DNA from: Jimgerdemannia flammicorona
Lineage: Eukaryota
Assembly (NCBI GenBank): GCA_003990765.1
Contig: RBNJ01000113.1
Location: forward strand, 1-41,151
Direction of reading: 5' to 3'
DNA length: 41,151 nucleotides
Shown here: positions 1 to 40,709 of the stretch, in pieces
Layout: every line of letters starts with the position of its first letter
Numbering within the stretch: the stretch's first letter is position 1
Position numbers and translations under genes: made by a program
The notes under the pieces: model-generated
Database searches by the model: none
Told to the model about the DNA's origin: nothing
What the model saw: only the letters and a program-made list of their open reading frames with translations

Positions 1-43
1 TTTTTTTTATTTTTTTTTTTTTATTATATATATATATTTTTTT

Positions 44-749
44 TATTATAAAACGAGTAGATAATAGAGAAATAGTTTAGAGCGAGATGTGATACTGTTA
101 TAGCAGATATGAAAGTCGGCGGTAAGAGGTCAAAACAGAAGAAGCAGTAATCTTATGTGAATTTTCATGATGGAACAAAAGCAAGCAGAATAAAGTATTT
201 TCTAAAGTAAGGTGCAATAGATCTGCAACCCGCCCTCAGTACTACAATACGTAGTGGTCTTTATTCATTATGAGAAACAAAGTTTGGGTAAATAAAGACA
301 CAGATCTAACCCCAGAATTCCGGAATCGGATAGGTGCATAAGTACCCAGACCTTGCCCCGATCCAAACAAAGGTCTGAATCGGGCTTCATCGATCTACAC
401 ATGTGATAGGCCATTAAAAATCTGATATAGTAATAATCGGAAAAAAGGTTCCGGTCATGTGATCTAATGTTACACATACAGGAAACAATGCTAAAAACGG
501 AACTAGACCAATGACACATCACATGTCGTCACGTGATTATCACTTATAGGTTTAAAAACCTAAAAATCATCAGCACCCAAAGACATAGGCATCAGGCCTA
601 GAGCCTTATGACTGGAGCAGAGTAGAGCCTCGGCATCAGAGCGAGCAAAGCAAGCAGAGGTAGACAGGTGTCATGGAGCATAGGTATGCAGGTGTCAGGC
701 CTAGAGCCTTGCGCCAGAGGTTGTCTGGTGATTTTTCATGTTTTTAAAC
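44..749 (-). repeat. PLE terminal repeat (pseudo-LTR), 3' end of left copy
   Basis: Aligns directly to 8924-9634 and as reverse complement to 13328-14034. Contains an internal inverted repeat at 550-569/729-749. Confidence 0.92.
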
Positions 750-779
750 ATTGCACGGCATGTACAAGCAGTGCAGCCT

Positions 780-2789
780 TCAAGGAGGACTTAGAGTGAA
801 GCTGGTATTTGAGACGGTGTTAAGAATGGTAAAACCATTCTTCTGGGCAATGATAGGTCGCTGGGCAGTTGCAGGGAAACCAAAATGAAGCAAAGCAGTA
901 TGTAGAGTCTTGTCAGGCTGTTGATGTAGCCATCGGGCCATATCATATTGGATGACAAGTAATGGGGGAGGAAAAGCGGAGTGGGGAATAGGGGGGTGGG
1001 AAATAAGGGGAGGGGTGAGAAGTAAAGTTTGGACCTCAAGCCAATCAACTAAACTCAACTAAGTGGTTACAACATCAACAGAGTATCCTTTCCTATGAAC
1101 CAGGAACTCGGCTAAGAGCCGACACTCATCAAGCCAATCACGGCGATACAAGCAGAGTAGCGATAGATAGCGGGTCTCATTTATAATGTATAGACGGAGC
1201 ATCTTCCTAGGATGATTACTCAACCAGTTGACAAACTGTGTACTATGCGGGAACTTAGCAAAGTGGCCTGTGCGGAATGGTGCGACCCAGATTTCCAGGT
1301 CCAGATAATGGCATGGTCTGGTGGACAAGAATTCCTATTCAATATGATGATATGGGGGATATACAGCACCAAAGATTGTGGCCAAGTCCATAATCGCAAG
1401 CATAAAGACAATAAGATCATCAATATATCAGCGGAACTTTAGCCCGGCTTCGATAGCTCAGCTTAGCAGATGGTCAGGCACTTGCAAGGCATGCAACTCA
1501 TGAGCGAAACCAACAAGGTTGGCGAGATCCAGGGCACAATTTGTCCCTATAGCAATACCAGACACAGAGCAGAAGGAACTGATGGCGGATGTGAACGTCA
1601 TATGGGTCATGACAATGCGGACAAGGCCAAGAATGACTTCAAGTGGCAAAGAGCCAGGGGGGAAGGCCACCATCGATAAGAAGGTAAGGCAGTCAATACA
1701 CTCATCTAATGTAATCCTAGTGTAAAAGGCAGCAAAATCCCCAGTAGCAACGTAGTTGCAATCTGACATGTCTAGATAATCTGATCGAACTAGCTGTAGC
1801 AGTTCAAGTGTATCATATAGAGGTGAATAATGCGAATAACCCAAATTATGGTACAGATGGGCTGACCACAGGCAGAGAAAGTGAGATAGAAAATGCGAAA
1901 TCTCAGTCATGGGAGAGTTAAAAGCACCAATGATAGGACGCCATGCCATGCAAGCCCCTTTGTATACCTTGGGCAAAGCATGAAACATAGGCATCTTACA
2001 ATTGCTAGGCTCTATGAGGTGTTCCCAAATTGGCATACAATTTCTGTTGCTGATACAGAACTCGAGTAGACCCAACAGGTCTAATCTCACTGATTCCTTA
2101 ACATCATCAATTGTAGAGGGATCATTCACATACACAGGATTGTGAAGGAGAGACCGAAGACCATCGAGATAAAGAGTATGCAGAATTATAGTGAACCTCA
2201 GATTTTTGTTGGTAAGACAGACTGTAAAGTCATCATGAGTACGGACACCTTTAAGAAGGTATTGGAACTTCTTCGGTATAAGCATGCCAGACACATTTGT
2301 TATGGGTCGGATAGCTTGATTCAAAGTGGTACTCATATAGAGCATAATTTACATATTTTCCATACAGTGTGGTGGTCGCTATTTAGATGGTACCCAGGTG
2401 GAGATCTCCGGGATATCATCAGGATTACCCATGGAGGTCCAGAAGGTAGTAAGGTCAAGATGCTATTGGAACAACAACAACGAAATCGGGTTGATGGTGC
2501 TGTTCATCAATGCTGACCCAGGGAGAACAAACTTAGGACCAAAATTCAGCATATACATGAGCTCAGGGGTAAGCCAAGGCAGAGGTATATCTGTAACAAA
2601 GCTCTCCTCAGTAAACATCTGAAACCGAGGGATGAAAAACTGACTTAAGTGAGAACCAGAAAGAGAAGACATGAAGGCAAAATCCTCAATTGGTGTCGAG
2701 GCCACTACCCCATATGGAATGGGGACATCGGGGCCAAACCACACTGCCAGGAAGTCATATAAGATATCTGGGCTAGGGACCTCTAGTTT
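780..2789 (-). pseudogene. PLE reverse transcriptase ORF2 (left copy), point stops only
   Basis: Track ORFs 2463-2744, 1458-2345, 1059-1328 and 780-1058 share one frame. Motifs: LNFGPKF, LPKVYK..WRPII, GDFAAFYTRI, GIAIGTNCALDLANL, YIDD, YLDLEI and the thumb motif SNHP. No GIY-YIG domain before the stop. Confidence 0.88.
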
Positions 2790-3800
2790 TTTGAAGCTAG
2801 AGGGCAGACATCGCCAGCATTATGCCAGATAACATGATATTTGGCAGCAGTACACTTGTTGCACTATGGCACAAATGCCCTGGTGGCGCTCTTAGATGAG
2901 TGGCTCGAAGTCAATGAGCGGCTGGTCCTGGTAGAAGTGGAAGAAATGGATGGGGAAGGTGAAGCCTTATGCACTCACTTGACCCCTTTTACAGAACCCA
3001 CTGTCATGGCAGGGGCTAGGGGGCAAGGACCCCGGTGGGCCTTTATAGATACACCAAGGTGTCCAGAACAGCTATAGCAGTTCAGCACAGCAGAGGCCGA
3101 AGTCACATCCACCACCTTGGCCTTTCCCGCAGCCTCTGCAGGTGCAGCGGTAGAGGGTGGGGGGGTGGGGACACTCTTTTTCGGCTGGGCGGAACTGGCG
3201 GCAGTAGAAGCAAATGTGCATTTGGTACCCAGAGTAATGATCTCAGAGCACTTTCCAAGCTCCTCAATTATGGTCTTATGGGCAGCAGTAGAAATCCCAT
3301 CTTGCAGAGAAGAGGACACAGGGACAGTCGGGTGGACTGCAGTGGTGGCAGCTTTGGCAGCAGTGGCAGTGGCAAGATGGCAAGATTGACGCATGACAAC
3401 ATTAAAACCACGAAGCAGAAACAAGTTTGTCTTGGCCCTGTCGGCAGCAGTGAGGGAGGCAATATTCTTGCCAACCCCTTGAGTGATACATATCAACAGA
3501 TATCCCAAAGAAGTTATGGGCATCGGAAGACTCACCCATGGCCTTGTCGATTTTAGCATGCTGGTCCTTAGCGTGCTGGGTGGTGGCATCTTGATCGGAG
3601 ATAGCAGCCTCGATCATGGCAGTGGTACAGCACTTAGCTTCTGCCGAAGTAGTAGAAAGGGCAGCGTTATACTATTTCTCTAAGAGGAGGGCAATCGCAG
3701 CAGTGACCTTCTTGGAAGGAGTAAACTTCCAATCGACAACTTGAGCTCTCAAAAAAGTAGCCCAGCACTCACGCACAATGGTAACCTCGAGAGTATGAAG
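2783..3800 (-). pseudogene. PLE ORF1 (left copy), C-terminal part
   Basis: Homologous to the region of the right copy from about 10278 to 11295. Has a 4-nt frameshifting insertion at 3487-3492 and is split by the copia insertion. Confidence 0.8.
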
Positions 3801-3924
3801 TATTGGGATGGTAACTCAATATATCAGCACGTGGTTGATGATTTCATCAGTCTGACATCATCAATCTATAATGCATAAAATATGCATCCTATGCAAGTTC
3901 AATAAAACACCCTCTTTCCTAACA
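3801..3924 (+). repeat. copia 5' LTR
   Basis: TA(=TG)TTGGG...CCTAACA. Differs from the 3' LTR at 18 positions by manual alignment. Contains AATAAA. Confidence 0.95.
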
Positions 3925-3926
3925 AA

Positions 3927-3941
3927 GGTTATGAGCCCCGC
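3927..3941 (+). other. Primer-binding site complementary to the anticodon arm of initiator tRNA-Met (half-tRNA priming)
   Basis: GGTTATGAGCCCCGC lies 2 nt after the LTR. It is the same type as the Drosophila copia and yeast Ty5 PBS. Confidence 0.8.
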
Positions 3942-3994
3942 TAGTGTTAAGCGGCTATAGAATATATATCTCATAAATATATGCTACACTATAT

Positions 3995-6900
3995 ATGCTA
4001 GAAATGTCAGAAGAACAACCTAGCAATGCAAGCAATAGTGGTAATATGCCAATCACCAACATTCTGGTGATGGGAGCAGTCCCTGTCATAAGCGTAAATA
4101 CAGCCAAAAGGTCCATCCCAATCTTCAATGGGAAAGACTATGCCATCTGGGTGTTCCATATGACAAATCTCCTTGACGAATGTGGCTTGGCGGAGTATAT
4201 GAAGCCACAAGCGCAGATTCAAGACTACGACCCCGCAAATGATCACCAAGCATTATGCAAAATCGCATTCATGTTATCGAACTCGCAAACGAAGCTCGTA
4301 ATGCATGCCAATACAGCCAATAAAGCATGGGAAACCCTATGCAATCATCATGTGCAAGCATTCATATCGAATCGATTCTACCTGAAATCTCAACTATTCA
4401 ATCTCTGAATGAAGCCCAAGAAAAGTATCTGAGAATATGCCAATCATGTCGACGACCTGGTGAATCAAGTGAATTCCCTCAGCGTGTCTGCGGATTGCAT
4501 TGGCAATGAAGAGAAGGTCATAGCACTCACAAAAGGACTCCCGGATACATATAATGTTGTCGTCACAGCCATGCATGAGAGTGGCACTCTCATGGACTAT
4601 GCCCACATAATAACAAGCCTTACGAACGAGGAAATGTGCCAAGGAAACAGTGCCAATGACAATGATGAAAGGGCATTCTATGGGTTCCGCAGACATGGCA
4701 ATGCCAAATGTGGTCAACAAGATTGACGAACCCAGACCTAAGCTCAACAATGCGATAATAGTCAGTCCAACCAATCAACCAAGTATGATGGTTACTGTGA
4801 ATATTGCAGCAAGTATAGACATAGGAAACACCAGTGCTATTACTGGGAAAATGAAAATAAGCGTGGAAGCCAGCATGGAAGTCAGCATTGGCAACATGGG
4901 AGCAATGGCAGATATCGAGGGAAGCGTGGAAATGCAAATACTGCCGAAACTGATGAAAGGAGCAACCTATTCTTTGCGCAAGCTACCAACTCCAATTCCA
5001 GTAATTATACCGCCAAATCCACCAACTCGTCGTCTATGGACCCTGGTCAGCAAAACACTTTTGAGCGGACAAAAAGTGGCAATGACATCAGCAATGAATC
5101 TGCCAATGCAGCTGACGACAATGATATCTGGCTGATGGATTCTGGAGCCACGCAACACATGATGCCACACAGGGAATGGTTCTCTATGTATGAGCCTTTC
5201 GAGCACCCTGTACCTATCAAGTTAGGAGACAACAATGTCATCTACACTCAAGGAAAGAGAAATATCAACATGTGTCTCCACGGCAATATCGTAGAACCTG
5301 CTGGTATCTTTGCAGACGTACTATATGCCTCAGACATAGGAAAGAACCTCTTTTCGATGGGAAAGATGATGTCTCACGACAACAAAGAAATACATATATA
5401 TCCAAAGAGTACAATAGTATACAATCTGCATAGCAATGAACTGATGACAGCCTTGAAACAAGGCAATCTCTATATGATTAACGGCACACCGAATGGCGCG
5501 AAAGCCTCTGCGTACGCGATAACAATAACTAAGTTCGATACCTGTAACATGTGGCATCAATGCTTAGGACATATCAGCAAAACCAGCCTTGAAAGGATGA
5601 TCCGAAACAGCTCCGTGAGTGGATTGCCAACAAATATATACCCCCAAACTGACAGTTTTTGTGAGGATTGCATGGCAAACAAAGCCTCCCAGCTACCATT
5701 CAAAGAATGACTAAGGCACGTATCCAGGATCCTCGACCTCATGCATACAGATATATGCGGCCCAATGCATATGCCATTGCACTCCAGCAAGAGGTATTTT
5801 CTCACATTTATCAATGATTATATGCGTAAAGCATACGTATATCTCCTATCGGCGAAGAGCGAAGCCTTGGATAAATTCAAGGAATTCAAAGCGAGCACCA
5901 AGAACGAGACTGGACATAGAATACGCACTATATAATCAGATAACAGATGCAAATATGTCAACAATGCATTCAGGCAATTCTTGACGAAACATAGCATCAC
6001 CCATCAAATGACGGCTCCATATATACCTCAGCAGAATGGTGTGGCTAAGCAATTTAACCATACAGCCATAGAAATGGTGCATATGATGATCAATGCTGCC
6101 AGACTATCGTATTCCTATTGGGCTGAAGCCATAAACACCATGGTGTATATATGCAATTGGTGCATATCTCAATCGCTAAGCAAAGAAGCCAGCAACAATA
6201 AGTATTCCAGGGATGATAATCTTACCTCTGAAGAGTTATGGAGCAGATCCAAACCCAATATATCCCATCTATGTATATTTGGATCTGAGGCATATGTCCT
6301 CGACAAAAGCAATGCTGTCTGGAATAAGTTTGAACCCAAGACGAGGAAGCATATATTTCTTGGGTATTTCGGCAAAGTGTATAGACTATGGGATCCAAGC
6401 AAGCAGCATATAGTCATCTTGCGTGACATATAGTTCAAAGAAAAAGAGTTGGAGATCCGCATAGAAGTACTGGTCAAAACCTCTACATCAACCTCTGCAT
6501 CCCAGCTAGCACAAATGCAGCAACCATCATCCACCTCTCCAGCAGTCAATCAAAATTATTTTCAACTGCTATACATACCTGAGCCTGAGCCAAGAGTAAT
6601 GGAGATCAAAGACGAAGATGACGGCGAATCCTCCAATGACGAGGGATCCTTTTCGAAGGGTAAAAAGTACTCTAACGTTTGGCGTGAAACCCACTCAGAA
6701 TTAGAGAGTTATTGGGATATGCTAGCAAGCTGGAGATAACATAAGGACCATGTGAGCTATGCAGAAGCATACGAATATGCGTATATCGCAACATCTTCTG
6801 GCGAGCCAAACACATATGATGAGGCTGTACAATGCACTAATAATAAGCAATGGAAACAAGCTATGGAGGAGGAATACAATTCACTCATCCAGAACGAAAC

Positions 6901-8393
6901 ATGGGATCTAGTATCTCTTCTGCCAAACCATCAAGCAATCGGATCAAGATGGGTGTATAAGCTAAAGCATAATGCCAAAGGAAACGTAGAGTGGTATAAA
7001 GCTTGCTTTATCACTAAGGGTTATTCGCAGGACTATGGCATAGACTATGATGAAACCTTTTTATCTGTATTCAAGCTTACTTCGCTTAGAATACTCCTTG
7101 TAATCGGCATGCTATACGACCTAGAAATCCACCAAATGGATGTTAAGACAGCCTTCCTGAACAGTAATGTGGACACTGAAATATGTTTGCCAACCATAAG
7201 GATACGAACTATACGACAACCAGAATGGCAAGCTCGTATGCCGATTACATAAAGGATTATATGGCATTAAACAAGCGGTGTGTCTATGGAATAAAAGGAT
7301 TGATAAACATCTTCTTGACAATGGATTCAAGCATTGCGAGGCAGACAATTGCATATATGTCCAATACTATGACGACGGCATAGTGTTTATTGGCATATGG
7401 GTTGATGATATCATCATCGTAACCAGCAAGAATAGGCTTAATGGAGTAAAAGAAACTCTATGCCGCGAATTCAAGATAACCAACATGGGCGACACATCCT
7501 TTCTTTTGGAAATATCCATCATGTGTGACAGGAACGCATGTGCCATATACCTCTCGCAAGCAACATATGCTCAAACTGTCCTCAAACGCTTCAATATGAA
7601 TAAATGTAAGCCTGTCGGCACTCCTATAGAGACTTCCGTAAAATTAAGGAAGCCCGACGACAACACTACACCTGCTGACAACATCCCCTATCGATAAGCG
7701 GTCGGTTCTCTTATGTACCTCATGCTTGGAATGAGACCCAACATATCCTATGCCATCAATAAGGTGGCATAGTACTCATCCTGCTATGATAACTCGCATT
7801 GGAGCGCCGTTAAGAGAATTTTCAGATATCTTAAGAGTACGGCACACTATACGCTCACCCTCGGCAGCGGATTAAGCAGGAGCAATGGTAAGAGCAATAA
7901 CATCCAGCTATCTGGTGCATGTGACACCAATTGGGCAGATGATTTAGATGACCGCTGATCTATGGCTGGATATCTCTTTCACATCGATGGCAAAGGATCC
8001 GTCATTTCATGGCAAACATGCAAGCAGAGTTCCATGGCAACATCGTCAACACAGGTGGAGTACCAGGTACTGTCATTGGCAACAAAGGAAGCTATTTGGC
8101 TCCACGAGCTTTTAAAGGAACTCAGATTCCCTCAGAAATGCACTACACTATGTCAGGACAACCAGTCTATGATTGTACTCGCTAAGAACCCAATACACCA
8201 CAACAGAATGAAACATATCGATATACAGTACTATTTCATTCGCGAATGCATAGACAACAGCGCTATACACCTGGAATACATTCCCACGGAGTATATGATT
8301 GCAGACTCATTGACCAAAGCCCTTCCAAGGCCGAAGTTCAAGCTATGTACTAAAGGAATGGATCTTATGAGTCTTACGCTAATATCTGGTTGA
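3995..8393 (+). pseudogene. copia gag-pol polyprotein
   Basis: IPIFNGKDYAIW (gag), CEYC-x4-H-x4-C knuckle (~4797-4838), WLMDSGATQHM (protease), WHQCLGH/CEDC/HTDICGP (integrase), QMDVKTAFL and WVDDI (RT), KHIDIQYYFIRE (RNase H). Many stops and some frameshifts. Confidence 0.93.
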
Positions 8394-8641
8394 TCACAGG
8401 ACACTTTTCAGACTGTTAAAAGCCTCACACCACATTCTACATCTATATATGTTTGTTACATCCCTCATCTGCGAGTAGATAATATTACTTGCATTTCTGC
8501 AAATATTTCGGGTATTTCGAAGTACTCTTCAACCCACGAAAATTCAGTATTTTGGGTTACATGCAGTTCTTTTTTTTGGGAACATTCTGTATCCCCTTTT
8601 TTTTTCTCTCTTACATATATGCATATCTCGTTGAGCGGGAG

Positions 8642-8765
8642 TGTTGGGATGGCAACTCGATATATCAGCATGTGGTTGATGATTTCATCAGTCTGATATC
8701 ATCAATCTGTAACATGTGAAATACGCGACCTACACAAGTTCAATAAAATGCCCTCTTTCCTAACA
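8642..8765 (+). repeat. copia 3' LTR
   Basis: TGTTGGG...CCTAACA, preceded by the purine-rich GAGCGGGAG (PPT). Confidence 0.95.
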
Positions 8766-8770
8766 TGAAG

Positions 8771-8917
8771 CACTCCAATGCAAGCAGTATGGAAGCTAGC
8801 AGGGACCTCGGCAAGTGAAGCAGTCAAGAAGATGGCCAGGTCATTGAAGTTCGCCAAATCGGCGAAAGAAGCTTTGGGGATGGCAGCATTGCCATCTACA
8901 TTCATGTTATCTGTCAT
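8771..8917 (-). pseudogene. PLE ORF1 (left copy), N-terminal part
   Basis: MTDNMNVDGNAAIPKASF matches the start of the right-copy ORF1 at 10135. Confidence 0.82.
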
Positions 8918-8923
8918 GTTGTG

Positions 8924-9634
8924 TATTATAAAATAAGTAGATACATAATAGAGAAATAGTTTAGAGCAAGATGTAATACTGTTATAGTGGATATGAAAGT
9001 TGGTGGTAAGAGATCAAAACAGAGGAAGCAGTAATCTTATGTGAATTTTCATGATGGAACAAAAGCAAGCAGAATAAAGTATTTTCCGAAGTAAGGTGCA
9101 ATAGATCTGCAACCCACCCTTGGCACCACAATACATGGTGGTCTTTATTTATTATGAGAAACAAAGTTCGGGTAAATAAAGACACGGATCTAACCCCAGA
9201 ATTCCGGAATCGGATAGGTACATAAGTATCTGGACCTTGTCCCGATCCAAACAAAGGTCTGAATCGGGCTTCATCGATCTACACACATGATGGGTCATTA
9301 AAAAACCCGATATAGTAACAATCAGAAAAAAGGTTCTGGTCATGTGATCTAATGTTACACATATAGGAAACAATGCTAAAAATGGAACTAGACCAATGAC
9401 ACATCACATGTTGTCACATGATTGTCACTTATAGGTTTAAAAACCTAAAAATCATTAGCACCCAAAGGCGCAGACATCAGGCCTAGAGCCTCATGACTGG
9501 AGCGGAGTAGAGCCTTGGCACTGGAGCGAGCAAAGCGAGCAGAGATAGACAGGCGTCATGGAGCATAGGTACATAGGCGTCAGGCCTAGAGCCTTGTGCC
9601 AGAGGTTGTCTGGTGATTTTTTGTGTTTTTAAAC
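8924..9634 (-). repeat. PLE terminal repeat, 5' end of left copy (contains the palindrome centre)
   Basis: Direct repeat of 44-749, lying immediately upstream of the ORF1 ATG at 8917 (-). Confidence 0.92.
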
Positions 9635-10128
9635 CTATAAGTGACAATTACATGACGACACGTGATGTGTCATTGGTCTAGTTCCATTTTTAGCATTGTT
9701 TCCTATATATGTAACATTAGATCACGTGACTGGAACCTTACTATATCGGGTTTTTTAATGGCCCGTCACATGTATAGATCGATGAAGCCCGATTCAGACC
9801 TTTGTTTAGATCGGAGCAAGGTCTAGGTACTTATGCACCTATCTGATTCCAGAATTCTGGGGTTAGATCCATGTCTTTGTTTATCCAAACTTTGTTTCTC
9901 ATAATAAATAAAGACCACCGCATATTGCAGTGCTGAGGGCAGGTTGTAGATCTATTGCACCTTGCTTCAGAAAACACTTTATTCCACTTGCTTTTGTTCC
10001 ATTGTGAAAATTCACATAAGATTACTGCTTCCTCTGTTTTGACCTCTTACCACCGACTTTCATATCCACCATAACAGTATCACATCTTGCTCTAAACTAT
10101 TCCTCTATTATCTACTCATTTTATAATA
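9614..10128 (+). repeat. PLE terminal repeat, truncated 5' copy of right element
   Basis: Matches 13508-14034 and is the reverse complement of 8924-9454. Confidence 0.9.
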
Positions 10129-10134
10129 TACAAT

Positions 10135-11295
10135 ATGACAGATAACATGAATGTAGATGGCGATGCTGCCATCCCCAAAGCTTCTTTCACTAATTTGGTG
10201 AACTTCAATGACCTGGCCATCTTCTTGACTGCTTTGCTTGCCGAGGTCCCTACTAGCTTCCATGCTGCTTGCACCAGAGTACTTCGTACTCTCGAGGTTG
10301 CTGCTGCGCATGAGCATCGGGCTACTTTTTTGAGAGCTCAAGTTGCCAATTGGAAGTTTACTCCTTCTAAGAAGGTCGCTGCTGTAATCACCCTCCTCCT
10401 AGAGGAACAGTGTGATGCCACCCTTTCTACTACTTCGGCAGAAGCTAAGCACCATGCCACTGCCATGATTGAGGCTGCTATCTCTGATCAAGATACCACC
10501 ATCCAGTATACTAAGGACCAGCATGCTAAAATTGACAAGGCCATGGGTGGGTCTTCTGATGCCCATAACTTCTTTGGGATATCTATTGATATCACTCAAG
10601 GGGTTGGCAAGAATATTGCCTCCCTCACTGCTGCCAACAGGGCTAAGACAAACTTGTTTCTGCTCCGTGGTTTTGACATTATCGTGTGTCAATCTCACTG
10701 TCTTGCCACCACTGCCACTGCCAAAGCCACCACCGCCACAGTCCACCCAACTGTCCCTGTATTCTCTTTCCTGTAAGATGGGATTTCTGCTGCCACCCAC
10801 AAGGCCATAGTTGAGGAGCTTAAAAAGCACCCCGAGATCATTACTCTGGGTGCCAAATGCACATTTTCTTCTGCTGCTGCCGGTTCTGCCCAGCCGAAAA
10901 AGAGTGTCCCCACTCCCCCACCCTCTACTGCCACACCTGCGGGGGCCATGGGAAAGGCCAAGGTAGTGGATGTGACTTCGGTCTCTGCTATGCCAAACTG
11001 CCGTAGCTGTTCTGAATACCTTAGTGTGCCTATGAAGGCCCACTGGAGTCCTTGCCCCCTAGCCCCTGCCATGGCAGTGGGTTCTGTAAAAGGGGTCAAG
11101 CGAGCGTGTAAGGCTTTGCCTTCCCTGTCCATTTCTTCTGCTTCTACCAGGACCAGCCGCTTGTCGACTTTGAGCTGCTTATCTAAGAGTGCCACCAGGG
11201 CATTTGTGCCACAGTGCAACAAGTGTACTGCTGCCAAACGTCATGTTGTCTGGCATAATACTGGCGACGTCTGCCCTCTAGCTTCAAAAAACTAG
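10135..11295 (+). pseudogene. PLE ORF1, ~386 aa, gag-like nucleic-acid-binding protein with two CCHC-type motifs
   Basis: One frame with one internal TAA at 10774, which is CAA in the left copy. C-terminal motifs CRSC-x10-H-x3-C and CNKC-x9-H-x5-C. Confidence 0.78.
11286..11292 (+). promoter_or_regulatory. Candidate -1 ribosomal frameshift heptamer A_AAA_AAC
   Basis: X_XXY_YYZ in the ORF1 frame directly before the ORF1 TAG. ORF2 is in the -1 frame. Conserved in the left copy (GTTTTTT at 2786-2792). Confidence 0.7.
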
Positions 11296-13298
11296 AGGTC
11301 CCCAGCCCAGATGTCTTATATGACTTCCCGGCAGCGTGGTTTGGCCCTGATGTCCCCATTCCATATAGAGTAGCAGCCTCAACACCAATTGAGGATTTTG
11401 CCTTCATGTCTTCTCTTCCCAGTTCTCACTTAAGTCAATTTTTTGTCCCTTGATTTCAGATGTTTACTGAGGAGGGCTTTGTTACAGATATATCTCTACC
11501 TTGGCTTACCCCCGAGCTCACGTATATACTGAATTTTGGCCCTAAGTTTGTTCTCCCCAGGTCAGCATTGATGAACAGCACCATCGACCCAATTTCGTTG
11601 TTGTCGTTCCAATGGTATCTTGACCTTGCCACCTTCTGGACCTCTATGGATAATTCTGACGATGTCCTGGAGATCTCCACCTAGGTGCCATCTAAATGGC
11701 AACTGCCACACTATATGAAAAATATGCAAATTATGCTCCATATGAGTACTGCTTTAAATCAAGCTGTCTGACCCATGACAAATGTGTCCAGTGCACTTGT
11801 ACTGAAGAAGTTCCGATGCCTTCTTAAAGGTATCCATACTCATGATGACTTTACAGTCTGTCTTACTGACAAAAATCTGGGGTTCACTGTAATTCTGCGC
11901 GCTCTTTATCTCGATGGTCTTTGGTCTCTCCTTCATGATCCTGTGTATGTGAATGATCCCTCTATGATTGATGACATTAAGAAATCAGTGAGATTAGACC
12001 TATTGGGTCTACTCGAGTTCTGCATCAGTGATAGAAATTGTATGCCAATTTGGGAACACCTCATAGAGCCTAGCGATTGTAAGATGCCCATGTTTCATAC
12101 TTTGCCCAAGGTACACAAAGGGGCTCATGTGGTATAGCATCCTATCATTGGTACTTTTAACTCTTCCATGACTGAGATTTCATATTTCCTATCTTGCTTT
12201 CTCTACCTGTGGTCGGCCCATCTGCGTCATAATGTGGGTTATTCACATTATTCACCTCTACGTAATATGCTTGAACTGTTACAGCTAGTTCGATTGGATT
12301 ACCTAGACATGTCAGATTGCAACTATGTCGCTACTGGAGATTTCACTACCTTCTACATCAGGATTACATTAGATGAGTGCATTGACTGCCTTACCTTCTT
12401 ATCGACAGTGGCCTTCCCCTCTGGCTCTTTGCCACTTGAAGCCATTCTTGGCCTTGTCCACATTGTCATGACCCATATGACGTTCACATCTGCCATCGAT
12501 TCCTTCCACTCTGTGTCTAGTGTTGCTATAGGGACAAATTGTGCCCCGGATCTTGCCAACCTCATTGGTTTTGCTCATAAGTTGCATGCCTTACAAGTGC
12601 CTGACCATCTGCTAAGCCGAGCCATCGAAGCCGGGCTAAAGTTCTGCTGGTATATTGATGATCTTATTGTCTTTACACTTATGATTATGGACTTGGCCAC
12701 AATCTTTGGTGCCATATATCCTCCACATCATCATATTGAATGGGAAGTCTTGTCCACTGGACCGTGCCATTATCTGGACCTGGAAATCTGAGTTGCACTG
12801 TTCTGCACAGGCCGCTTTGCTAAGTTCCCACATAGTACACAGTTTGTTGACTAGTTGAGTAATCATCCTAGGAAGATACTCTATCTATACATTGTGAATG
12901 AGGCCTGCTGCCTATCACTGCTCTGCTTGTCTTACTGTGATTGGCTTGATGAGTGTTGGCTCTTAGCTGAGTTCCTGGTTCACAAGAAAGGATACCCTGT
13001 TAATGTTGTAACTGCTCAGTTGAGTTTGATTGATTGGCTTGAGGTCCGAACTTCACTTCTCACCCCTCTCCTTATTTCCCACCCCCCCATTCCCCACTTC
13101 GCTTTTCCTCCCCCATTACTTGTTGTCCAATATGACATAGCCCGATGGCTACATCAACAGCCTAACAAGACTCTATGTATCACTTTGCTTCATTTTGGTT
13201 TCCCTGCAACTGCCCAGTAACCTATCATTGCCCAGAAGAATGGTTTTATCATTCTTAATGCCGTCTCAAATACCAGCTTCGCTCTAAGTCCTTCTTGA
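11289..13298 (+). pseudogene. PLE reverse transcriptase ORF2 (right copy), 670 codons, -1 frame relative to ORF1
   Basis: Track ORFs at 11460, 11775, 12168 and 12855 are all in the same frame. Motifs: LPKVHK, GDFTTFY, GTNCAPDLANL, WYIDD, YLDLEI, SNHP. Confidence 0.88.
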
Positions 13299-13327
13299 AG
13301 GCCACACTGCTTGTACATGCCGGCGAT

Positions 13328-14034
13328 GTTTAAAAATGTGAAAAATCACCGAACAACCTCCGGTGCAAGGCTCTAGGCCTGATGCCTGCATACCTATACT
13401 CTATGATACCTGTCTACCTCTGCTCACTTCGCTCACTTCGGTGCCGAGGCTCTATTCCACGCTGGTCACGAGGCTCTAGGCCTGACACCTGCGCCTTTGG
13501 GTGCTGATGATTTTTAGGTTTTTAAACCTATAAGTGACAATCACATGACAATACGTGATGTGTCATTGGTCTAGTTCCGTTTTTAGCATTGTTTCCTATA
13601 TGTGTAACATTAGATCACATAACTGGAATATTTTTCCCAATTGTTACTATATCAGGTTTTTTAATGGCCCATCATGTGTGTAGATCGATGAAGCCCGATT
13701 CAGACCTTTGTTTGGATCGGAGCAAGGTCTGGGTACTTATGTACCTATCTGATTCTGGAATTCTGGGGTTAGATCCATGTCTTTGTTTATCTGAACTTTG
13801 TTTCTCATAATGAATAAAGACCACTGCGTATTGCAGTGCTGAGGGCGGGTTGCAGATCTATTGCACCTTGCTTCGGAAAACACTTTATTCTGCTTGCTTT
13901 TGTTCCATCGTGAAAATTTACATAAGATTACTGCTTCCTCTGTTTTGACCTCTTACTGCCAACTTTCATATTAGCCATAATAGTATCACATCTCGCTCTA
14001 AACTATTCCTCTATTATCTATTCATTTTATAATA
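13328..14034 (+). repeat. PLE terminal repeat, 3' end of right copy
   Basis: Reverse complement of 44-749, with internal inverted repeat 13328-13348/13508-13527. Followed by poly(A). Confidence 0.92.
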
Positions 14035-14501
14035 AAAAAAAAAGATGTAATATAACTCTTAATATTAGATATTATTTTAGACTTGAGCAATATACTAGTA
14101 TATCTTATCAAATCTAATATATCTAGCTATAGATATATCATATAGTTCTTACAGAATTTATAAGTAAATAGAGATATTAGAGACCCAAATTCTTATATTG
14201 TTAAGATATATATATTTATTTTAAATAGATTATATAATAGTTCTAGTTTCTTTAAGAGGGAGCAGCTAGGTTCTGATAATTCTAGTAAGTCTAAAGTAGC
14301 TCTAAACTTTATTTAAGTAGAGAACAAAAATAATTATATAAAATTGAAAGAAAGATCTGAAAGAATCTTGGAAAAGAAGAGAAAGGCTAAGAAATAGGTT
14401 CTTAACAAAGATGATTAATAGAATTCTACAATATTTCAAAAGGTTATATAACTAGCTAAGATAAGATACTTAGTACTGAAAAAAGATAAGAATATTCTAG
14501 T

Positions 14502-15138
14502 TAGTACTCTAAATAAATCAATTTAATCTAGATTGGATTCAGATTGGATTCAGATTGGATTCAGATTGAATCCCATCTAGATCAACTCAGATAGAAAATG
14601 AGCTGATCTGGATTAATTCAAATCAACTATTGTTTTGATTTCCAAATTAGACAATTAAATATTTACATCAATAACTTAATAAATAATTATTCAATTTTAA
14701 TAATCTTAGTGTTATTTGAAAGCTCTTAATAAGGCCTTTCTAATGATATCAAGAATATTAAAATCAGATTACACATTGCTGAGCTATTAAGGAAAATATT
14801 TTTTTGAAAAAAAAAAAATCCAAAATTGGCAAGTTGAATAATTTCCAAAATTGACAAGTCAGATATTTTTCTTGATAACTCAGTAATATATAATTCAATT
14901 GCAATGTTCTTGATATCATTAGAAAGGCCTTATTAAGGGCTTTCAAATAATATCAAAATCATCAAGATTATCAAAATTAAATAATTATTCATCAAGTTAT
15001 TGATGTAAATATTTAATTGTCTAATTTAGAAATAAAAACAATAGTTGATTCAAATCAATCCAGATCAGCTTGTTTTCCTATCTAAGTTGATTCAGATGGG
15101 ATTTGAATCTGATCTAGATTAACTTGTTCAGAGCACTA
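14502..15138. mobile_element. Non-autonomous hAT-family foldback element (MITE)
   Basis: Termini TAGTACTCTAAA/TTCAGAGCACTA match the large hAT TIR. Inverted arms are roughly 280-300 bp. The 8-bp TSD ATTCTAGT/GTTCCAGT differs by two transitions. Confidence 0.85.
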
Positions 15139-15769: not shown

Positions 15770-16032
15770 ATTAATCTGAATCATCCCATCTGAATCACCC
15801 CATCCAAATCATCCATCTAAATCACCCCATCTGAACTACTTAATCCAAATTACTCAATCCAAATCACTCAATCTAAATCACTCAATCTGAATCACTCAAT
15901 CTAAATTACTCAATCTGAATTACTTAATCTAAATCCTCCAATTCAAATCCTCCAATTCAAATCCTCTAATTCAAATCTTTTAATCTGAATCCTCATCCAA
16001 ATCCTTCAATCAAATCCTTTAATCCAAATCCT
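15770..16032 (+). repeat. hAT subterminal ~14-bp tandem repeats (copy 1)
   Basis: ATC(C/T)(G/A)AATCACTCA-like units; a CpG-depleted version of 40250-40625. Confidence 0.85.
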
Positions 16033-16305
16033 CCACATGACTTATATACTAGATGCATCTATATATACAATATACATATATGCAAACATATGCATATATG
16101 CAAATATACACATATACATAAAAATATACAAATACACATCATTTTCCTGGATACCTTTCTCCTATACAATTCACATTACACCAACTTTAAGCAATGATTT
16201 TTGATATAACTCAGAGAAAAGATACTATAAAAATATCATCAAGCAAGAGTTCCAACAGGTATACTGAGTCAGATAGATCTAGTGCATTTGGCTGGCAGTA
16301 TGTAG

Positions 16306-18250
16306 GGAGAGATTATGGACTAGAGATGGGGAATTTTGGAGAATTGAAGGGTGGAGAAGGCTCTGGAGGAGGTTCAGTATCCAGTGGAACTGGGGGAAGG
16401 CCTAGACCCTCTAGCTTTATAGACAAGGTAAAGGTGAGTGGATGGCCAGCTGGAACTAGAGCTGGTACTGCTGAGGGAAAGGACAAGGCTAGTATTGAGA
16501 GAGGGAGCAGTACTCTAGTAAGAGATGTGAGTATAGGGGCTAGAGGTGCTGTGGCTGGGGGTTGGACTGCTGATGGGAGTATGACAGAAAATTAGAAAAA
16601 AAAAAGAGATATGATGGCTGATGGTAAGGTAGGGTAGAGGTTCCCAATGTGGAAAGAGGACCTAGCAGATGGTGTGATGGGGCTGGCAGTGGCACTATTA
16701 CTCAAGAAGTTGATTTTAGAGTTTATGGCTACCTTATACTTCCAGGGCTTGGCAGTGATAGTGAGGATGGTCCTGGGGATTATCTTGAAGCAGGTGGCTG
16801 GAGCCACCTCAGTGAAGTTTCTGAAGAAGCTAGAGGGGGTTGAGGTGGGCTTTGAGAAGGTAGGCACACTAAATGAGGCTCTGAAGACTAGAGTAGTAGT
16901 TGGGGAAGTGGTGGTCCCTATGGTATATTGCCTAAGGTGGGACCTCAGGGTGGTTCAGTTGCTAGTGAAGGGGGTGCCTACAGTGATGGTGGTTAGGATG
17001 AGGAGGAGGGTTGAGGAGATGATGGCAAAGTATAGTGATATAGTTGATATTGGTTTTCAGATATGGGAGGGGACCACTATTAGGACTAGAAATGTTAATA
17101 TCAGGATTTGCCTAGTAGGAAAGGAGGTCACTGGGAAGATGAGTGACTGGCCAACAGTAATGCTTTGGGGGGCTTACAGCTGTCAGATGTTGAGGGTAAA
17201 AGGGAGTGAGGAGGAGGAGGAGGAGAATCTGTTGGAGGCTCTAGAGGAGATGAGTGGAGCTGTCAAGTGGTGGACAAAGATATGAAAGTTGTATGAGGAG
17301 TCAATACATCTGGTGATTGTCAATGGAAAATATATTTGTACTGACAAGAGGTAGTGAGAGAGGGCTCAAGGGTATAGGAGACAGAGAGAGCTGCTGGTGA
17401 GAATGGAAGGAGAGGTGAAGTTGAAGGCTGGGGGTACTGAGAAGTCTGCAGAGGTGGAGGTGAGTATCTGGGCTAGTAAGAGTGGAGGAGATGTGGAGGA
17501 GGGCCTGAGGGAAAGGAGAAGACACTATACAAGGACTCATTTGCAAATAGTACATTTGAAGTCTGGGAACAGGTCATGGATAACACTCCCTCTCTAGTCT
17601 GGCAGAGTCCAGCTACAAGGGGTCAGACAGCAGAGGATGAGCAGATGAGAGGTACTCAGTGGGTACACTTTAGAGTTCCTGACATGACAAAAGGTAGACA
17701 GATGGTGGCTGTTAGTAAGGATGAGCTGGTGGATGTCCCAGAGGAGGGGTGGTATGAGACAGCTAGTGTAGGAGCAGATAGATGCAGAAAGACCAGGGAT
17801 ACTGGGAGAGAAGAAGATAGAGAACCTGCTGTGGATGAGCAAGATAATGGATAACTTTGCAGCTGAGAAGTTGGGGAAAGTGAACTTGTATGTGATACCT
17901 GAGGAGTATTGGGCACAGATTCTGCATAGAGATGGGGTAGTGGGGATACTGAAGGCAGAGATACTTGCAATTCTCCTAGAGGAGGAGGGATATGAGGTTG
18001 ATAAGGAGAGGGAGACTGAACTGGCAGTCATTACTGGTGAGCATGCAGCCTACTGTTGGACAGAGCATTATGATTTGTAACTCTGACAGTAGACATATCT
18101 GGAGTATCATAAGGACTTTGAGGAAAAAGAGAATAGGGCAATGGCTGAACTTCTGATTGAGTTGGAGATACAGGTGGCAGAAGAGAAGGAACTGGCTGCA
18201 GAACATAACTTGGATTTGGCACAGGAGGAGTTGAATGCAGATTTGTAGAG
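16306..18250 (+). pseudogene. LINE ORF1 (RRM-like region), boundaries approximate
   Basis: VQLLVKGVP...EEMMAKYSDIVDI...GTTIRTRNVNIRI resembles the Tx1/L1 ORF1 RRM pattern, and it lies upstream of ORF2. Heavily disrupted. Confidence 0.5.
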
Positions 18251-18251
18251 A

Positions 18252-19254
18252 ATGAGATTGATAATCAATATTATTTCTTATGAATAGTACAACTAATATT
18301 TTCTCTCTAAATGTGAATAGGTTAAGGGGTTCTGGATATAAGAATATTTTTACTTGGCTTAAGGGATTGGAGGCTGATCTCTTTTTACTACAAGATGTAT
18401 AGTGTGAGGATGAGGAATATCAGATGGAGTAGACTAGAGAATGGGGAGAAGTTACTGCTTGGATTAACAAAGTAGTGATTCTGGTGAGGAAGGGTAGAGG
18501 TGATTTGGGCAGAATCAAGAGCTGGGATGACTGTTTGGTCTGAGAGAATGGCATCAACCTGGGTGGAAATCAGTGAGGGTTGGCTCCTGCTACTGCCCTG
18601 CAGTTAGGGGTGAGCAGATTGAGTAGATTAGGGATCTATTAGAGGAGGATATTCTCTTGAAGAAAGGTATTGATGTTCTGGAAGGTGACTTTAATATGGT
18701 GCAAAATTCACAGATGAATAGAACTGATGGAGGGAGGAGTACAGGTGGGAGGAGTAGTGGTCTGGATAAGTGGGAGGAGGTAGAGAACCTTAGCTTCTTA
18801 GGGGATATGGGTAGAATGTAGTGGGGTGATAGGAGGGTCTATACACACTGGGTGAATAGACTGGATACGAGAATTGACTAGATTCTGATGGCCAAATATT
18901 GGAGTGCTGATGTTTGGAGGACTCTGGAGGTAGTATGGTGCCCATGGTCTGATCACTGGGGGCTATTGGATCAGGGGCAGTTTGGGGGGAGTGGAGATAG
19001 ATCCAGACATTGGTGCCTTAACTTCTCTCTGCTGGCTGAGAAGGGGTTGTGGGACCCATGGGTGGAGGACATCCAAGTGAAGATCACTAACTGGATATGT
19101 GAGAGTTCATCTGTAGGTATCTATTGGATGAGGTTGAAGGAGACTGTGAGGGTTTATTGAGAAGGAGCTAGTAGAGAGACTAGGAGGCAGAGAAGAAGCA
19201 AGTAAGGTATACTTCTAATAGGCTGATTAGATTGTAGATAGAATGGGCTGATTT
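18252..19254 (+). pseudogene. LINE ORF2, AP-endonuclease part
   Basis: GDFN (~18684), RID.IL (~18868), SDH (~18948) and WCLNFSLL motifs. Confidence 0.8.
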
Positions 19255-19541
19255 TGTAAGTGCACAACCTCTAAGCCACTGAATTACATGTCACCCTCTG
19301 AATAAGCCACTGAAATCACACGTGATCTCTGAACAAATCTGGAAATAACTTGCTTGATCATGAAGCTGAGTCAAACTGAAGTCACAGTGCACAAAGCTGA
19401 GTTAAACTGAAGTCATAGAACACAAGATTTATACAAGCGGAATCTTACCAATCAGGATCAAATGCATATATACCAAGCACTGAGATGTGTCAAAACAGAG
19501 AACCAAAACAAACAATAACTATAACTGCCAAACACACAAAC

Positions 19542-20598
19542 ATGACCACCAAGATCTATACCTGTATCCATGCTGACATTTGGAATGCCATTGTCAATGG
19601 AGCCACACCCCCTCTTCCCCTCATGAATATCCATAGCCTAGCACCCCTCTACTTTGTGGAAGTCTGATGGAATGCTCTGAACATGCTTAGCGAGGCCCAC
19701 CAAATCGGACAAATCTCAAGCTACTACCAGATTGGCCACCTCCTGGAAGATATAGTTGAATACCACCATGATACAGACATTACCCAGATGTCCCAACACC
19801 AGAAGCTCATTGCCCGCAAATATCAAGAACTCTTCTACAAGTACAGTACTATTATTTCCTACCTCCAAGTTACCACTAGCGAAATGGTCGCTACTCTGTC
19901 CTATGGCCAAATCGATGACATGATACAAGAACTCAACCACAAGTACCTCAAGTACATTGAAACTACAGACAGAATCTTCCCACACCCCAATGATCACATC
20001 CTGCAAATGCCCCAAGTTGGATACACCATGAAGGACATCTATGATATAATTCACTTTGATGAAGATGAAGCAGAAGACAATGATCCCTCTGATGCTGACA
20101 TGACCTCTAGCCAAGGATCTCTGCCAAACCTGATCACACCACCGACCTTGCCAATGAACTTATAACAATTCATAACAGCCTACAAGACTTATTGAGACAA
20201 TGACCACTGGCATAAATACCAACCTGCATTCACCCCCGATTACTTCAACTACAATGAAGAGACCGGAGAACATAACCTGTACCTTCAGACAACCCTTGAG
20301 ATTGAACCAACCACTCCACTACCTGAGTATGAGTAATATGAACCACAGCCACCAGCCTACTACAACCCCATGACTCATAGTACTATAACCTATAGAAGGT
20401 ATGCAGATAGTGAAACCAATGAAAGCAAAGATGATGCACCCCTCCTTCACCCACCAACATGGAGACGAAGTTCCAATGTATTATTACCTCAGTGAACAAG
20501 GAGAAGTAATCCACAAACTACTTTTCCTAGACAACTACTTTATCAGAGATGATGCAATTGATAGTGATGTCATTGAGGACTACCCAGACAGTGCCTAA
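19542..20598 (+). pseudogene. LTR-embedded ORF, unknown protein (5' LTR copy)
   Basis: Track ORFs at 19485 and 19683 share a frame that continues through point stops. A ~40-bp deletion at ~20460 shifts the tail (ORF 20401-20598). Confidence 0.7.
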
Positions 20599-20786
20599 AC
20601 CATAAATAGCCTAGCAGTCATAGTATAGTTAGAGTAGCCTTATATGATGTGACTGTGAACTGACTCAGCAGTCAGACGATCTCTTGACCTATCAGATTAC
20701 ACTTGTACTACATGACTGTATTCCGACTCAGCAAAGCACTTAGTGCTATATCTATATTCAGCATAGTCCAGATAGCTCCTCACTAG

Positions 20787-20792
20787 TATAAA
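20787..20792 (+). promoter_or_regulatory. Candidate LTR TATA box
   Basis: TATAAA, conserved at 29168-29173 in the 3' LTR, downstream of the LTR ORF. Confidence 0.6.
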
Positions 20793-21257
20793 TACTCCCT
20801 CCCCCAGACCTCAGAATCTGAGACTCGAATATACAAGAACATTTCTGAATACTTCCCCACAATATTCCTTCACACAACTACTCCTAGTATAGAAATATCA
20901 TGAATAGCGAATAAAATTACTCAAATAACCCACAAATCACTCTTAAGTAAATCCACTCTCCATTAGGTCCCACTCCTAACCCTGTCATAAAATTTTCTAA
21001 TTGGGTATTGTCTGCAGCGATATGCCAATTCAACTAAGCTGGTCTTAGTTTCTTGAACTTCCTGAAATATGGAAAATCCAAACATCCAGAACTAGTCTGA
21101 AAAAGGGACTTTGGTTGAGATGTTAACCCAAACTTGAAATCAATGAGCATAGAGGATGTACTCTATATGAAATTGATCTTGACCATAAGAAAACAGTCTT
21201 CCAGAATATCCAGAACTTCCAGAAAACCCTTCCAGAACTATGTAACAGTTACCCTAA

Positions 21258-23300: not shown

Positions 23301-23710
23301 CTGGACTTTGTCAAGTTAAGACAAACTACTAAGGCCCCAACCAAAGGAAGTCAGAAAGCAGCTGGATATGACCTATATGCAGCCAAAGAAGCTACAGTTT
23401 CTAACTGAGAAGTCAAACAAGTCTACACAGGAATCAGCATCCAAATCCCTGAAGGATATGTTGGAAGAATATGCTGTCGCAGCAGCCTAGCATTAAAAGG
23501 ACTCTCAGTAGAAGGAGGAGTCACTGATGAGGATTATACAGGTGAAATTATTGTTCTCATCTGAAACTACAGTTGGACACCCTTCAAGATCCCTATTGGT
23601 TTTGGCATTGCCCAGATCCTATTCGAAAAAATCGAGTCAACCCTGACAGTCAAGGAAGTCCCTGAACTACTGCCCACCCTCCAAGGATCCAAAGGATTTG
23701 GCTCATCAAA
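23301..23710 (+). pseudogene. dUTPase domain, in frame with gag
   Basis: All five trimeric dUTPase motifs are recognisable: AGYDL, RSSLA, GVTDEDYTGEI, IAQIL, (R>Q)GSKGFGSS. Confidence 0.92.
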
Positions 23711-23929
23711 CAAGGCCCCAGCCCAACCTACCATGAGCAAAGAAGAACAATTCTACAAGAATATTGAAGATGGATATGTACCAAGTGGCCAATGCTCTCA
23801 TGGTATTGGAATGTACTCTTCCCAAATGATTAATGATTGCTTCTCTTATGTCAATGAACTGGCACAAGAAGAGCTAATAGAAGAAAAGCTCCTACAACTG
23901 AAATCACCACTATTGGATCAGACAAACTG

Positions 23930-26900: not shown

Positions 26901-27361
26901 ACCACTGAGAAGAAACCTTTGATATTGGAGAAAAAGTTCTACTGGACATCAGAGGATACCGAGTTGACAACCTCAAGCACAGACCATTTACAAAGCTGAA
27001 CAGCAAGTTTATTAGACCATTTGAAGTCATTGCACAAGTCTCTCCAACCTCCTACAAATTGGTGCTACCAGACAACATTAAGATTCACCCAGTCTTTAAT
27101 ATTCAACATCTCAAGCGATACAATGAGAATGATGATGAGCTATTTCCAAACCAGACTACCAAACCACCTGCACCTGTCATCATTAATGATCAAGAAGAGT
27201 ATGAAGTTGAACAAATCCTCAATAAATATGGCAACAAGAGCCACCCTGAGTACCTTGTCAAATGGAAAGGTTACCCGATCCATGATACAACCTGGAAACC
27301 CAAGACCAATCTTCAGAATACTACTGACCTAATTCAGGAATATGATTCCTTGAACAACTAG
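23930..27361 (+). pseudogene. gypsy pol: protease, RT, RNase H, integrase, chromodomain
   Basis: MIDSSTSGNFI, LRMCIDY, YIDD (~25025), TDAS, TDHKSL, HDAPTAGH/CDAC, MDFIVQLP, IVSDRD, HPETDSQTER, and chromodomain EYEVEQIL...YLVKWKGY...TWKP. Confidence 0.95.
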
Positions 27362-27563
27362 AACCAAATACTCTGCATCTATCCATACATACTATATATT
27401 ATCCTCTCAAACATTATAATTATTGCAAACCAAACCAAGAACTCAGCAAAAATACTGACCCTCTGGAAAAATGGCAGAACTGAAGGCAAGCCTATTCTCC
27501 CTGTATCACTGAATAAAATTAGAAGGCTCTGACAAGGACATTGAAAGCTAAGAAGGGGAGAGT

Positions 27564-29627: not shown

Positions 29628-29632
29628 GATTT

Positions 29633-35850: not shown

Positions 35851-35859
35851 CCTGCTGGT

Positions 35860-40625: not shown

Positions 40626-40709
40626 CCACATGACTCATATGCTGGACATGTCCACAACACAATACACACACACGCATACACACACACACATACACATGTA
40701 CACGCAAAC

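Follow-up and report, generated by a model that had tools for sequence, protein, structure and literature searches.

A head-to-head pair of endonuclease-less Penelope-like elements joined at a built-in inverted repeat in Jimgerdemannia flammicorona

Introduction

How does a retrotransposon come to be joined, 5' end to 5' end, to a second copy of itself? The question is raised by contig RBNJ01000113.1 of Jimgerdemannia flammicorona (assembly GCA_003990765.1), a stretch of 41,151 nucleotides of the forward strand that we call the window. Near the left end of the window lie two decayed copies of a Penelope-like element (PLE) in head-to-head orientation, one of them interrupted by a copia-type retrotransposon. 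An earlier note on this DNA, made from the sequence alone, had interpreted the pair as the trace of a complementary DNA (cDNA) that snapped back on itself.

Inverted arrangements are not new in PLEs. An inverted, 5'-truncated copy beside the upstream pseudo-long terminal repeat (pseudo-LTR) is a common feature of these elements, and its origin has been called undefined (Craig et al. 2021, PMC8557442). Palindromes of 18-38 bp have been described both at the 5' ends of pseudo-LTRs and at inverted junctions, and have been read as signs of self-priming (Arkhipova et al. 2013, PMC3846280). In the same text, fungal and protist PLEs without an endonuclease (EN-) are said not to share the inverted organisation. 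PLEs with an endonuclease (EN+), namely Penelope/Poseidon, Neptune, Nematis and Naiad/Chlamys, carry a C- or N-terminal GIY-YIG domain, a feature that we did not find in the element described here. Apart from Naiads and most Chlamys, all PLEs are reported to have a hammerhead ribozyme motif in the pseudo-LTR (PMC8557442).

Two decayed copies are joined at a split inverted repeat

Comparison of the window with itself gave inverted matches between 24-3802 and 10280-14055 and between 8767-9454 and 9614-10285, both at 88%. When the copia element is subtracted, positions 37-14043 amount by arithmetic to a palindrome of 9037 bp, in which 9635-14043 pairs with the opposite arm over about 4.4 kb. The earlier note had described a palindrome of about 9 kb with arms of about 4.4 kb, and the self-comparison agrees with it. 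The poly(A) ends face outward, as had also been noted: a T8 tract closes the left arm and an A10 tract the right (Table 1), with the same ...TTTTATAAT ahead of each. The alignment of the arms stops at these tails, and the DNA outside them is mutually unrelated. On the left, the window holds a flank of 36 nt only, whose plus strand is oligo(T)/(TA)n and would be suited to annealing with poly(A). The right flank is unlike that; beyond the A10 tract it is AT-rich and unrelated, and its priming strand would finish in ..TACATC, without a run of T.

Each complete pseudo-LTR opens with a split inverted repeat. The outer motif of 21 nt consists of GTTTAAAAA, 4 nt and AAAAATCA; a loop of 159 nt comes next, followed by a 20-nt inverted partner, TGATTTTT-AGG-TTTTTAAAC. 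This motif pair, with a 159-nt loop in every case, was present in 3/3 complete pseudo-LTRs (729-749/550-569, 9614-9634/9435-9454 and 13328-13348/13508-13527), in line with the 20-21-bp pair around a loop of about 160 bp that had been described before. When the three pseudo-LTRs were shuffled with their dinucleotides preserved, a two-block inverted repeat of like kind appeared in 1, 0 and 2 of 500 shuffles, respectively, indicating that the inverted repeat is not a chance feature.

We then looked at the centre of the palindrome. The junction motif at 9614-9634 is common to the left and the right copy and has the 4-nt middle typical of the outer motif. It is abutted without filler by CTATAAGTGAC (9635-9645), a sequence that elsewhere always follows the inner motif; the earlier note had read the junction in the same way. 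Only one central loop is present (9455-9613), and it has the orientation of the left copy, 8906-9634 being inverted relative to 13328-14056. A single left-oriented loop and an outer-type central motif that runs into CTATAAGTGAC indicate that the left copy extends to the very first base of the element and that 180 nt are missing from the start of the 5' pseudo-LTR in the right copy. The earlier claim that each arm is a complete element thus holds for the left copy and not quite for the right one. These results confirm that 37-14043 is a genuine palindrome, in which two decayed PLE copies face each other head-to-head, with a short built-in inverted repeat as the exact point of joining.

The element encodes a PLE-type reverse transcriptase without GIY-YIG

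The open reading frame (ORF) for the reverse transcriptase (RT) in the right copy contains the motifs DKNLG, LPKVHK..RPII, GIAxGT and YIDD as well as a thumb region, with YIDD and the later motifs read in right-arm fragments; the DKN motif is named as in PMC13159263. The alignment showed DKNLG, LPK[VI]HK..RPI, D..S.YT, GIAMGT, RYIDD, FLD and S.HP..RGYP. Pfam gave no match to the longest RT fragment, 296 aa encoded at 1458-2348 on the minus strand, and word-indexed protein searches with this 296-aa ORF likewise returned no match. An exhaustive phmmer search against 1.84 billion (1.84e9) representatives yielded 302 relatives with E<=1e-3 and a best E value of 1.4e-23. Among 40 of these relatives examined with Pfam, 27 carried RVT_1, and 3 carried RVT_1 together with GIY-YIG, the hallmark of PLEs; a home-made endonuclease profile matched 24 of 150. 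With relative P0001 as the query, tblastn read both arms in a single frame, at E values of 7e-75 (left arm, 1976-789) and 1e-67.

GIY-YIG was absent from all 15 sense-strand ORF fragments of the two arms in a Pfam search at E<=10. The RT ORF terminates 29 nt ahead of the 3' pseudo-LTR with its C-terminus aligned to the end of P0001, and the nearest relatives with complete C-termini are likewise without GIY-YIG. In a FastTree phylogeny of 144 rows, the RT of the window fell into a clade of 4 rows with P0002-P0004 (SH-like support 96), on a long branch (1.64) and with no EN+ member, the tree being built without named Athena or Coprina references. A profile search of PDB sequences gave weak generic RT matches only (best E 0.002) and was uninformative on the clade.

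We also searched for hammerhead and telomeric motifs. Rfam gave 0 matches, to the hammerhead or to any other family, at the gathering score in the whole window and 0 at E<=5 in 8800-14100, although a decayed hammerhead motif in hypermutated copies could escape such a search. The telomeric repeat TTAGGGTTAGGG (TTAGGG-type), the sole repeat type searched, had 0 matches in the window with at most 1 mismatch. These results make the element an endonuclease-less PLE, as the earlier note had called it; it has poly(A) ends and lies among other retrotransposons.

The two arms are of the same age and descend from an intact element

The arms differ at 514 of 4431 aligned positions, with 504 transitions and 10 other changes. 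Indels between them measure 13, 4, 4, 1 and 1 nt, and an extra 6-nt gap column corresponds to the copia duplication. Both copies are dead: the right one has 8 premature stops (7 in the RT frame and 1 in the ORF1 frame), and the left one has 10 (7 and 3) as well as a private 4-nt insertion near 3492. A private 13-nt deletion lies near 9737 in the 5' pseudo-LTR of the right copy. None of the 18 premature stops is common to both arms, which share only the ORF1 stop and the terminal stop, and each of the 18 is 1-2 transitions away from CAA, CAG, CGA, CGG or TGG. The privacy of 18/18 premature stops and the few small indels indicate that the common ancestor of the arms was intact when they separated.

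The load of changes polarised as C>T/G>A was also compared and was near 1:1 (left arm 244, right arm 258, of 502; z about 0.6 by arithmetic). Private stops and equal loads indicate that the two arms are of the same age and that the dimer arose from an intact element at or near insertion, in a single event or in two closely timed ones. The same observations disfavour duplication of a copy that had already decayed. The four pseudo-LTRs, at 89-92% pairwise identity, form a star, with 15, 12 and 7 informative sites for the three possible groupings, and a phylogenetic grouping of them was uninformative.

The share of sites that differed between the arms depended on sequence context, at 62% for CpG, 21% for CpA, 13% for CpC and 2% for CpT. 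The bias toward transitions recurs in all repeat pairs of the window (504:10 between the arms, 151:3 between the LTRs of a gypsy element and 17:1 between those of the copia element). Transition bias and context bias together indicate that the divergence of the arms mirrors hypermutation of the cytosine-deamination type and is not a neutral clock. Clustering of the transitions in strand tracts, as left by repeat-induced point mutation (RIP), was rejected, the data containing more runs than shuffles and not fewer. The changes are strand-symmetric and evenly spread, a pattern that resembles deamination of methylated cytosines in repeats and not the tracts of classical RIP.

Origin of the head-to-head pair

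We consider it an even chance (probability about 0.5) that the dimer was made by an intramolecular snap-back of first-strand cDNA during retrotransposition. Under this explanation, an active PLE lacking an endonuclease would have been reverse-transcribed starting at its poly(A) tail, the primer probably being an oligo(T)/TA-rich 3' end of broken DNA in the left flank. The first-strand cDNA would have gone on to copy the first 21 nt of the 5' pseudo-LTR, and its 3' end, TGATTTTT....TTTTTAAAC, would have folded back 159 nt upstream onto the inner motif that the cDNA itself contained. A polymerase would then have extended the folded end along the cDNA, starting with CTATAAGTGAC... and ending with the poly(A). 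The hairpin strand, once joined to the second DNA end, would have been copied into a linear palindrome composed of an antisense copy, the 159-nt loop and a sense copy. Later, the copia element would have inserted into the left arm, and both arms would have decayed through C-to-T hypermutation.

Snap-back fits the observed structure: it accounts for the single loop and its orientation, for the outer-type middle retained from the primer, for the full-length second arm, for the outward tails and for a symmetry that ends at the tails. We infer that the fold-back was intramolecular, that it took place during retrotransposition and that priming occurred at the left flank. The fold of the DNA in the cDNA-sense strand was predicted from the inner motif to the first base of the element. 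In this prediction, the 3'-terminal TTTTTAAAC and TGATTTTT blocks pair with the internal partner, including GTTTAAAAA, so that the terminal 9+8 nt are bound to the inner motif; the pairing was found in both the minimum free energy and the centroid structure for 3/3 complete pseudo-LTRs, with z-scores of -3.7, -1.6 and -2.8. The predicted pairing leaves CACTTATAG as the template, and its extension would write precisely the junction that is seen.

Several observations weigh against this explanation. The structure is known from one locus only. The stem is short and AT-rich and would have to close a loop of 159 nt, and one of the three folds is no better than shuffles (z -1.6; 11/200 shuffles fold equally well or better). 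The left flank in the window is too short for a target-site duplication (TSD) or a priming site to be judged. The junction would look no different if two cDNAs, or a new cDNA and a resident copy, had annealed at the same repeat of 9-21 nt. Finally, among 74 metagenomic loci of distant PLEs, 15 had more than one RT region, of which 14 were tandem, 1 was tail-to-tail and 0 were head-to-head; these loci are short-read contigs, which break at inverted repeats, and 11/74 exceed 7 kb, giving the comparison low power. The earlier statement that a cDNA 3' end snapped back and primed the second strand is partly supported, by the exact geometry and by the pairing predicted in 3/3 cases; two annealing cDNAs would give the same junction.

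The metagenomic loci were collected with an alignment that found no match among viral contigs; an alignment of close relatives found no match in metagenome contigs. All 74 belong to distant PLEs at 22-31% identity, and inverted repeats of at least 100 nt occurred in 3/74. In 11/74 loci (L003, L007, L014, L016, L019, L021, L022, L033, L051, L052 and L067) the first and last 123 or 127 nt were identical, as expected if tandem arrays of PLE units of 3.3-6.8 kb collapse into 'circular' assemblies. One further locus, L012, held four tandem units of 3196 nt each.

The strongest competitor of snap-back is double priming, in which both ends of a break, or both nicked strands, prime reverse transcription on two RNAs and the two converging cDNAs anneal at the inverted repeat, the 3' end of one to the inner motif of the other, before being trimmed, filled and ligated. 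It would give the same junction, outward tails, arms of equal age and an intact progenitor, and in-vitro experiments with a purified PLE protein showed cleavage and extension of both target strands (PMC11167929). We nevertheless regard it as unlikely: this element has no endonuclease to make two primers, the ..TACATC end of the right flank has no T-run for poly(A), and intramolecular pairing requires one event fewer. The unequal tails, 8 against 10, would suit two priming events, but such lengths drift easily through slippage.

Two other explanations are less likely than both snap-back and double priming. In the first, which we hold to be improbable, the copies were inserted successively, the second being made beside the resident one and its cDNA end being caught by microhomology at the terminal motif of the resident. 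Microhomology-mediated 5' junctions have been described for PLEs and for long interspersed nuclear elements (LINEs) (PMC3846280), and the 21-nt repeat is the longest homology on offer. However, the equal loads (244 versus 258) and the star of pseudo-LTRs require any lag to be small, the resident would have to end exactly at its first base beside a usable DNA end, and there is no DNA between the copies.

The second, more doubtful still, is a fold-back of host DNA: a break or a stalled fork at the 5' end of a single copy would let the chromosomal 3' strand anneal at the inverted repeat and be extended. The junction and the single loop would be the same, and any polymerase could extend the paired end. 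Palindromes of this kind, however, continue into the flanks, whereas the symmetry here ends at poly(A) on both sides; with 18/18 stops private, the event would also have to precede all decay. That a chimeric fold-back read or another artefact of sequencing or assembly produced the structure is hardly credible, as the earlier note had already argued: tandem and inverted PLE structures do trouble assemblies (PMC8557442), but near-identical arms would be expected, not 514/4431 differences (504 transitions) with almost no indels, different private stops and, in one arm, a 4965-bp copia element with its own TSD.

Relation to known systems

The closest parallel is found in EN+ Penelope elements of Adineta vaga (Pen2a_Av and Pen3a; PMC3846280, PMC8557442), which likewise have direct pseudo-LTRs, a head-to-head inverted copy at the 5' end and palindromes, one where the pseudo-LTR begins and one where the inverted copies meet. 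Their inverted part is usually no more than a pseudo-LTR or truncated copy, with a contiguous palindrome of 18-38 bp; here the second arm is full-length, and a 159-nt loop, still present at the centre, splits the repeat. They also have GIY-YIG, hammerheads, a tail of 30-40 bp and often TSDs; we found neither an endonuclease nor a hammerhead in this element, and each end bears a short poly(A).

Coprina and Athena elements (Gladyshev and Arkhipova 2007, as cited in PMC8557442) resemble the present one in an RT with DKN and thumb and without GIY-YIG, and Coprina-1_Alen (PMC13159263) resembles it in its two ORFs and flanking direct repeats. However, Coprina and Athena elements sit at chromosome ends amid telomeric repeats and carry reverse-complement telomeric stretches and hammerheads, while the element studied here has poly(A) ends and retrotransposons as neighbours, and no TTAGGG-type repeat was found in the window.

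Outside PLEs, LINE-1 twin priming and hairpin-primed second-strand synthesis also give inverted structures during reverse transcription, when microhomology or self-complementarity at a cDNA 3' end allows a second priming event. Twin priming inverts part of one copy and does not produce two full copies, and classical hairpin priming is an in-vitro side reaction without a defined repeat. The present locus differs from both in that a conserved 21-nt repeat sets the fold-back point.

Full-text literature searches on Penelope self-priming and on head-to-head PLEs returned no further relevant paper. The idea of self-priming was already published in general form in 2013, for endonuclease-containing PLEs. 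New here is that the element has no endonuclease, that the second arm is full-length and that the repeat is spaced, with its loop kept at the centre. The locus is an unusually clean example, having kept the fold-back point, the loop and both arms, with an intact progenitor and a junction exact to the base. It illustrates that an endonuclease-less PLE can have the inverted organisation thought typical of endonuclease-containing ones, and it points to a specific 21-nt repeat whose mutation could test self-priming biochemically or genomically. A single decayed locus proves no mechanism; we regard it as a good example and as a lead.

A broader reading would make the split repeat a functional cis-element of an endonuclease-less PLE lineage, in which the cDNA primes its own second strand, hairpin DNA is a regular intermediate and the present locus is one such intermediate fixed whole at a break; RT expression by -1 frameshifting, at A_AAA_AAC, might also be seen here for the first time in a PLE. 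We consider this combination speculative and rather improbable. The earlier description of a 'programmed' hairpin 'replication intermediate' rests on this single locus. Were the broader reading true, self-priming, proposed in 2013 and never demonstrated, would gain a defined sequence for mutation and testing.

Organisation of the element and of the copia insertion

The features of the dimer are listed in Table 1. In each arm, the unit consists of a 706-nt pseudo-LTR, a 7-nt leader, ORF1, an RT ORF overlapping it in the -1 frame, then 29 nt of spacer, the second pseudo-LTR and poly(A). The pseudo-LTRs form direct-repeat pairs within each copy, 45-749 with 8926-9634 and 9635-10127 with 13508-14033, both 90% identical. 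No Pfam family matched ORF1.

Table 1. Features of the head-to-head dimer and the inserted copia element (window coordinates)
Feature	Position	Strand	Evidence and details
Left copy, poly(A) tail (T8 on the + strand)	37..44	-	read directly; arm alignment stops there
Left copy, 3' pseudo-LTR, 705 nt	45..749	-	direct repeat with 8926-9634; four-way alignment; inner-motif complement 550-569, 159-nt loop 570-728, outer (first) motif complement 729-749
Left copy, RT ORF (terminal stop 782-780) and most of ORF1	750..3800	-	tblastn, stop table, ORF list
Copia-type LTR retrotransposon in the left arm	3801..8765	+	Pfam domains, LTRs, TSD
Left copy, ORF1 start (ATG 8917-8915) and 7-nt leader	8771..8925	-	aligned with right-arm 10128-10285
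Left copy, complete 5' pseudo-LTR	8926..9634	-	inner-motif complement 9435-9454, sole central loop 9455-9613, outer-motif complement 9614-9634
Right copy, 5' pseudo-LTR without its first 180 nt (outer motif and loop)	9635..10127	+	direct repeat 9610-10128 versus 13504-14034
Right copy, ORF1, 386 codons	10135..11295	+	1 private premature stop at 10774
Right copy, RT ORF, -1 frame	11259..13298	+	phmmer, alignment, tblastn, Pfam, stop table; 7 private premature stops
Right copy, 3' pseudo-LTR, 706 nt	13328..14033	+	outer motif 13328-13348, loop 13349-13507, inner motif 13508-13527
Right copy, poly(A) tail, A10	14034..14043	+	followed by unrelated AT-rich flank

The heptamer A_AAA_AAC, a canonical -1 slippery sequence, lies in phase with ORF1 within the 37-nt overlap of the ORF1 and RT frames. 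In the right arm it occupies 11286-11292, just ahead of the common stop at 11293, and the left arm has the same heptamer at 2792-2786 on the minus strand. A -1 slip at this site reads ..KKLEVPSPD.., which is the RT-frame ORF. A stimulatory RNA structure 3' of the heptamer was unsupported (z -0.19 and 0.13). Expression of a PLE RT by frameshifting would be unusual.

The copia element is 4965 bp long and contains the Pfam domains Pol_BBD, gag_pre-integrs, rve, SH3_retrovirus and RVT_2. Its 125-nt TG..CA LTRs (3801-3925 and 8641-8765) are 86% identical and differ by 17 transitions and 1 transversion. It is flanked by a 5-bp TSD, TGAAG (3796-3800 and 8766-8770); in the right arm, this site is uninterrupted. 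Both TSD copies read TGAAG, versus CGAAG in the intact right arm (10276-10280); either the C of this CpG changed to T in the left arm before the copia element landed, or both TSD copies mutated in parallel.

Surrounding repeats in the window

Just to the right of the dimer, in DNA of 23% GC, lies an AT-rich, self-complementary segment of about 550 bp (14561-15112; 79% palindromic, with arms at 14594-14716 and 14955-15077), which may be a foldback or MITE-like (miniature inverted-repeat transposable element) sequence. A chromovirus-type Ty3/gypsy LTR retrotransposon occupies 19254-29590 and contains an RVT_1 fragment, rve, SH3_Tf2-1 and a chromodomain in broken ORFs. Its LTRs of about 2 kb (19254-21206 and 27563-29590) are 92% identical; the differences are 151 transitions to 3 others and are unequal by type, with 99 C/T and 52 A/G.

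Base composition changes in blocks along the window. GC skew runs from +0.33 to +0.52 in 16000-19000, from -0.09 to -0.28 in 19000-29000 and at about +0.4 in 30000-32000, the sign flipping near the boundaries of the gypsy element. The observed/expected ratio of CpG was 0.025 in 33000-40000 and 0.12 in 16000-32000, versus 0.40-0.66 in the PLE arms and the copia element; the CpG-depleted regions may be older, fully deaminated repeats. Arrays of a 14-nt satellite (consensus near ATCYRAATCACYCM) occur at 15774-16035 and 40256-40626 and share about 75-78% similarity, and the segment 32393-32849 matches 40706-41151 at 83-87%.

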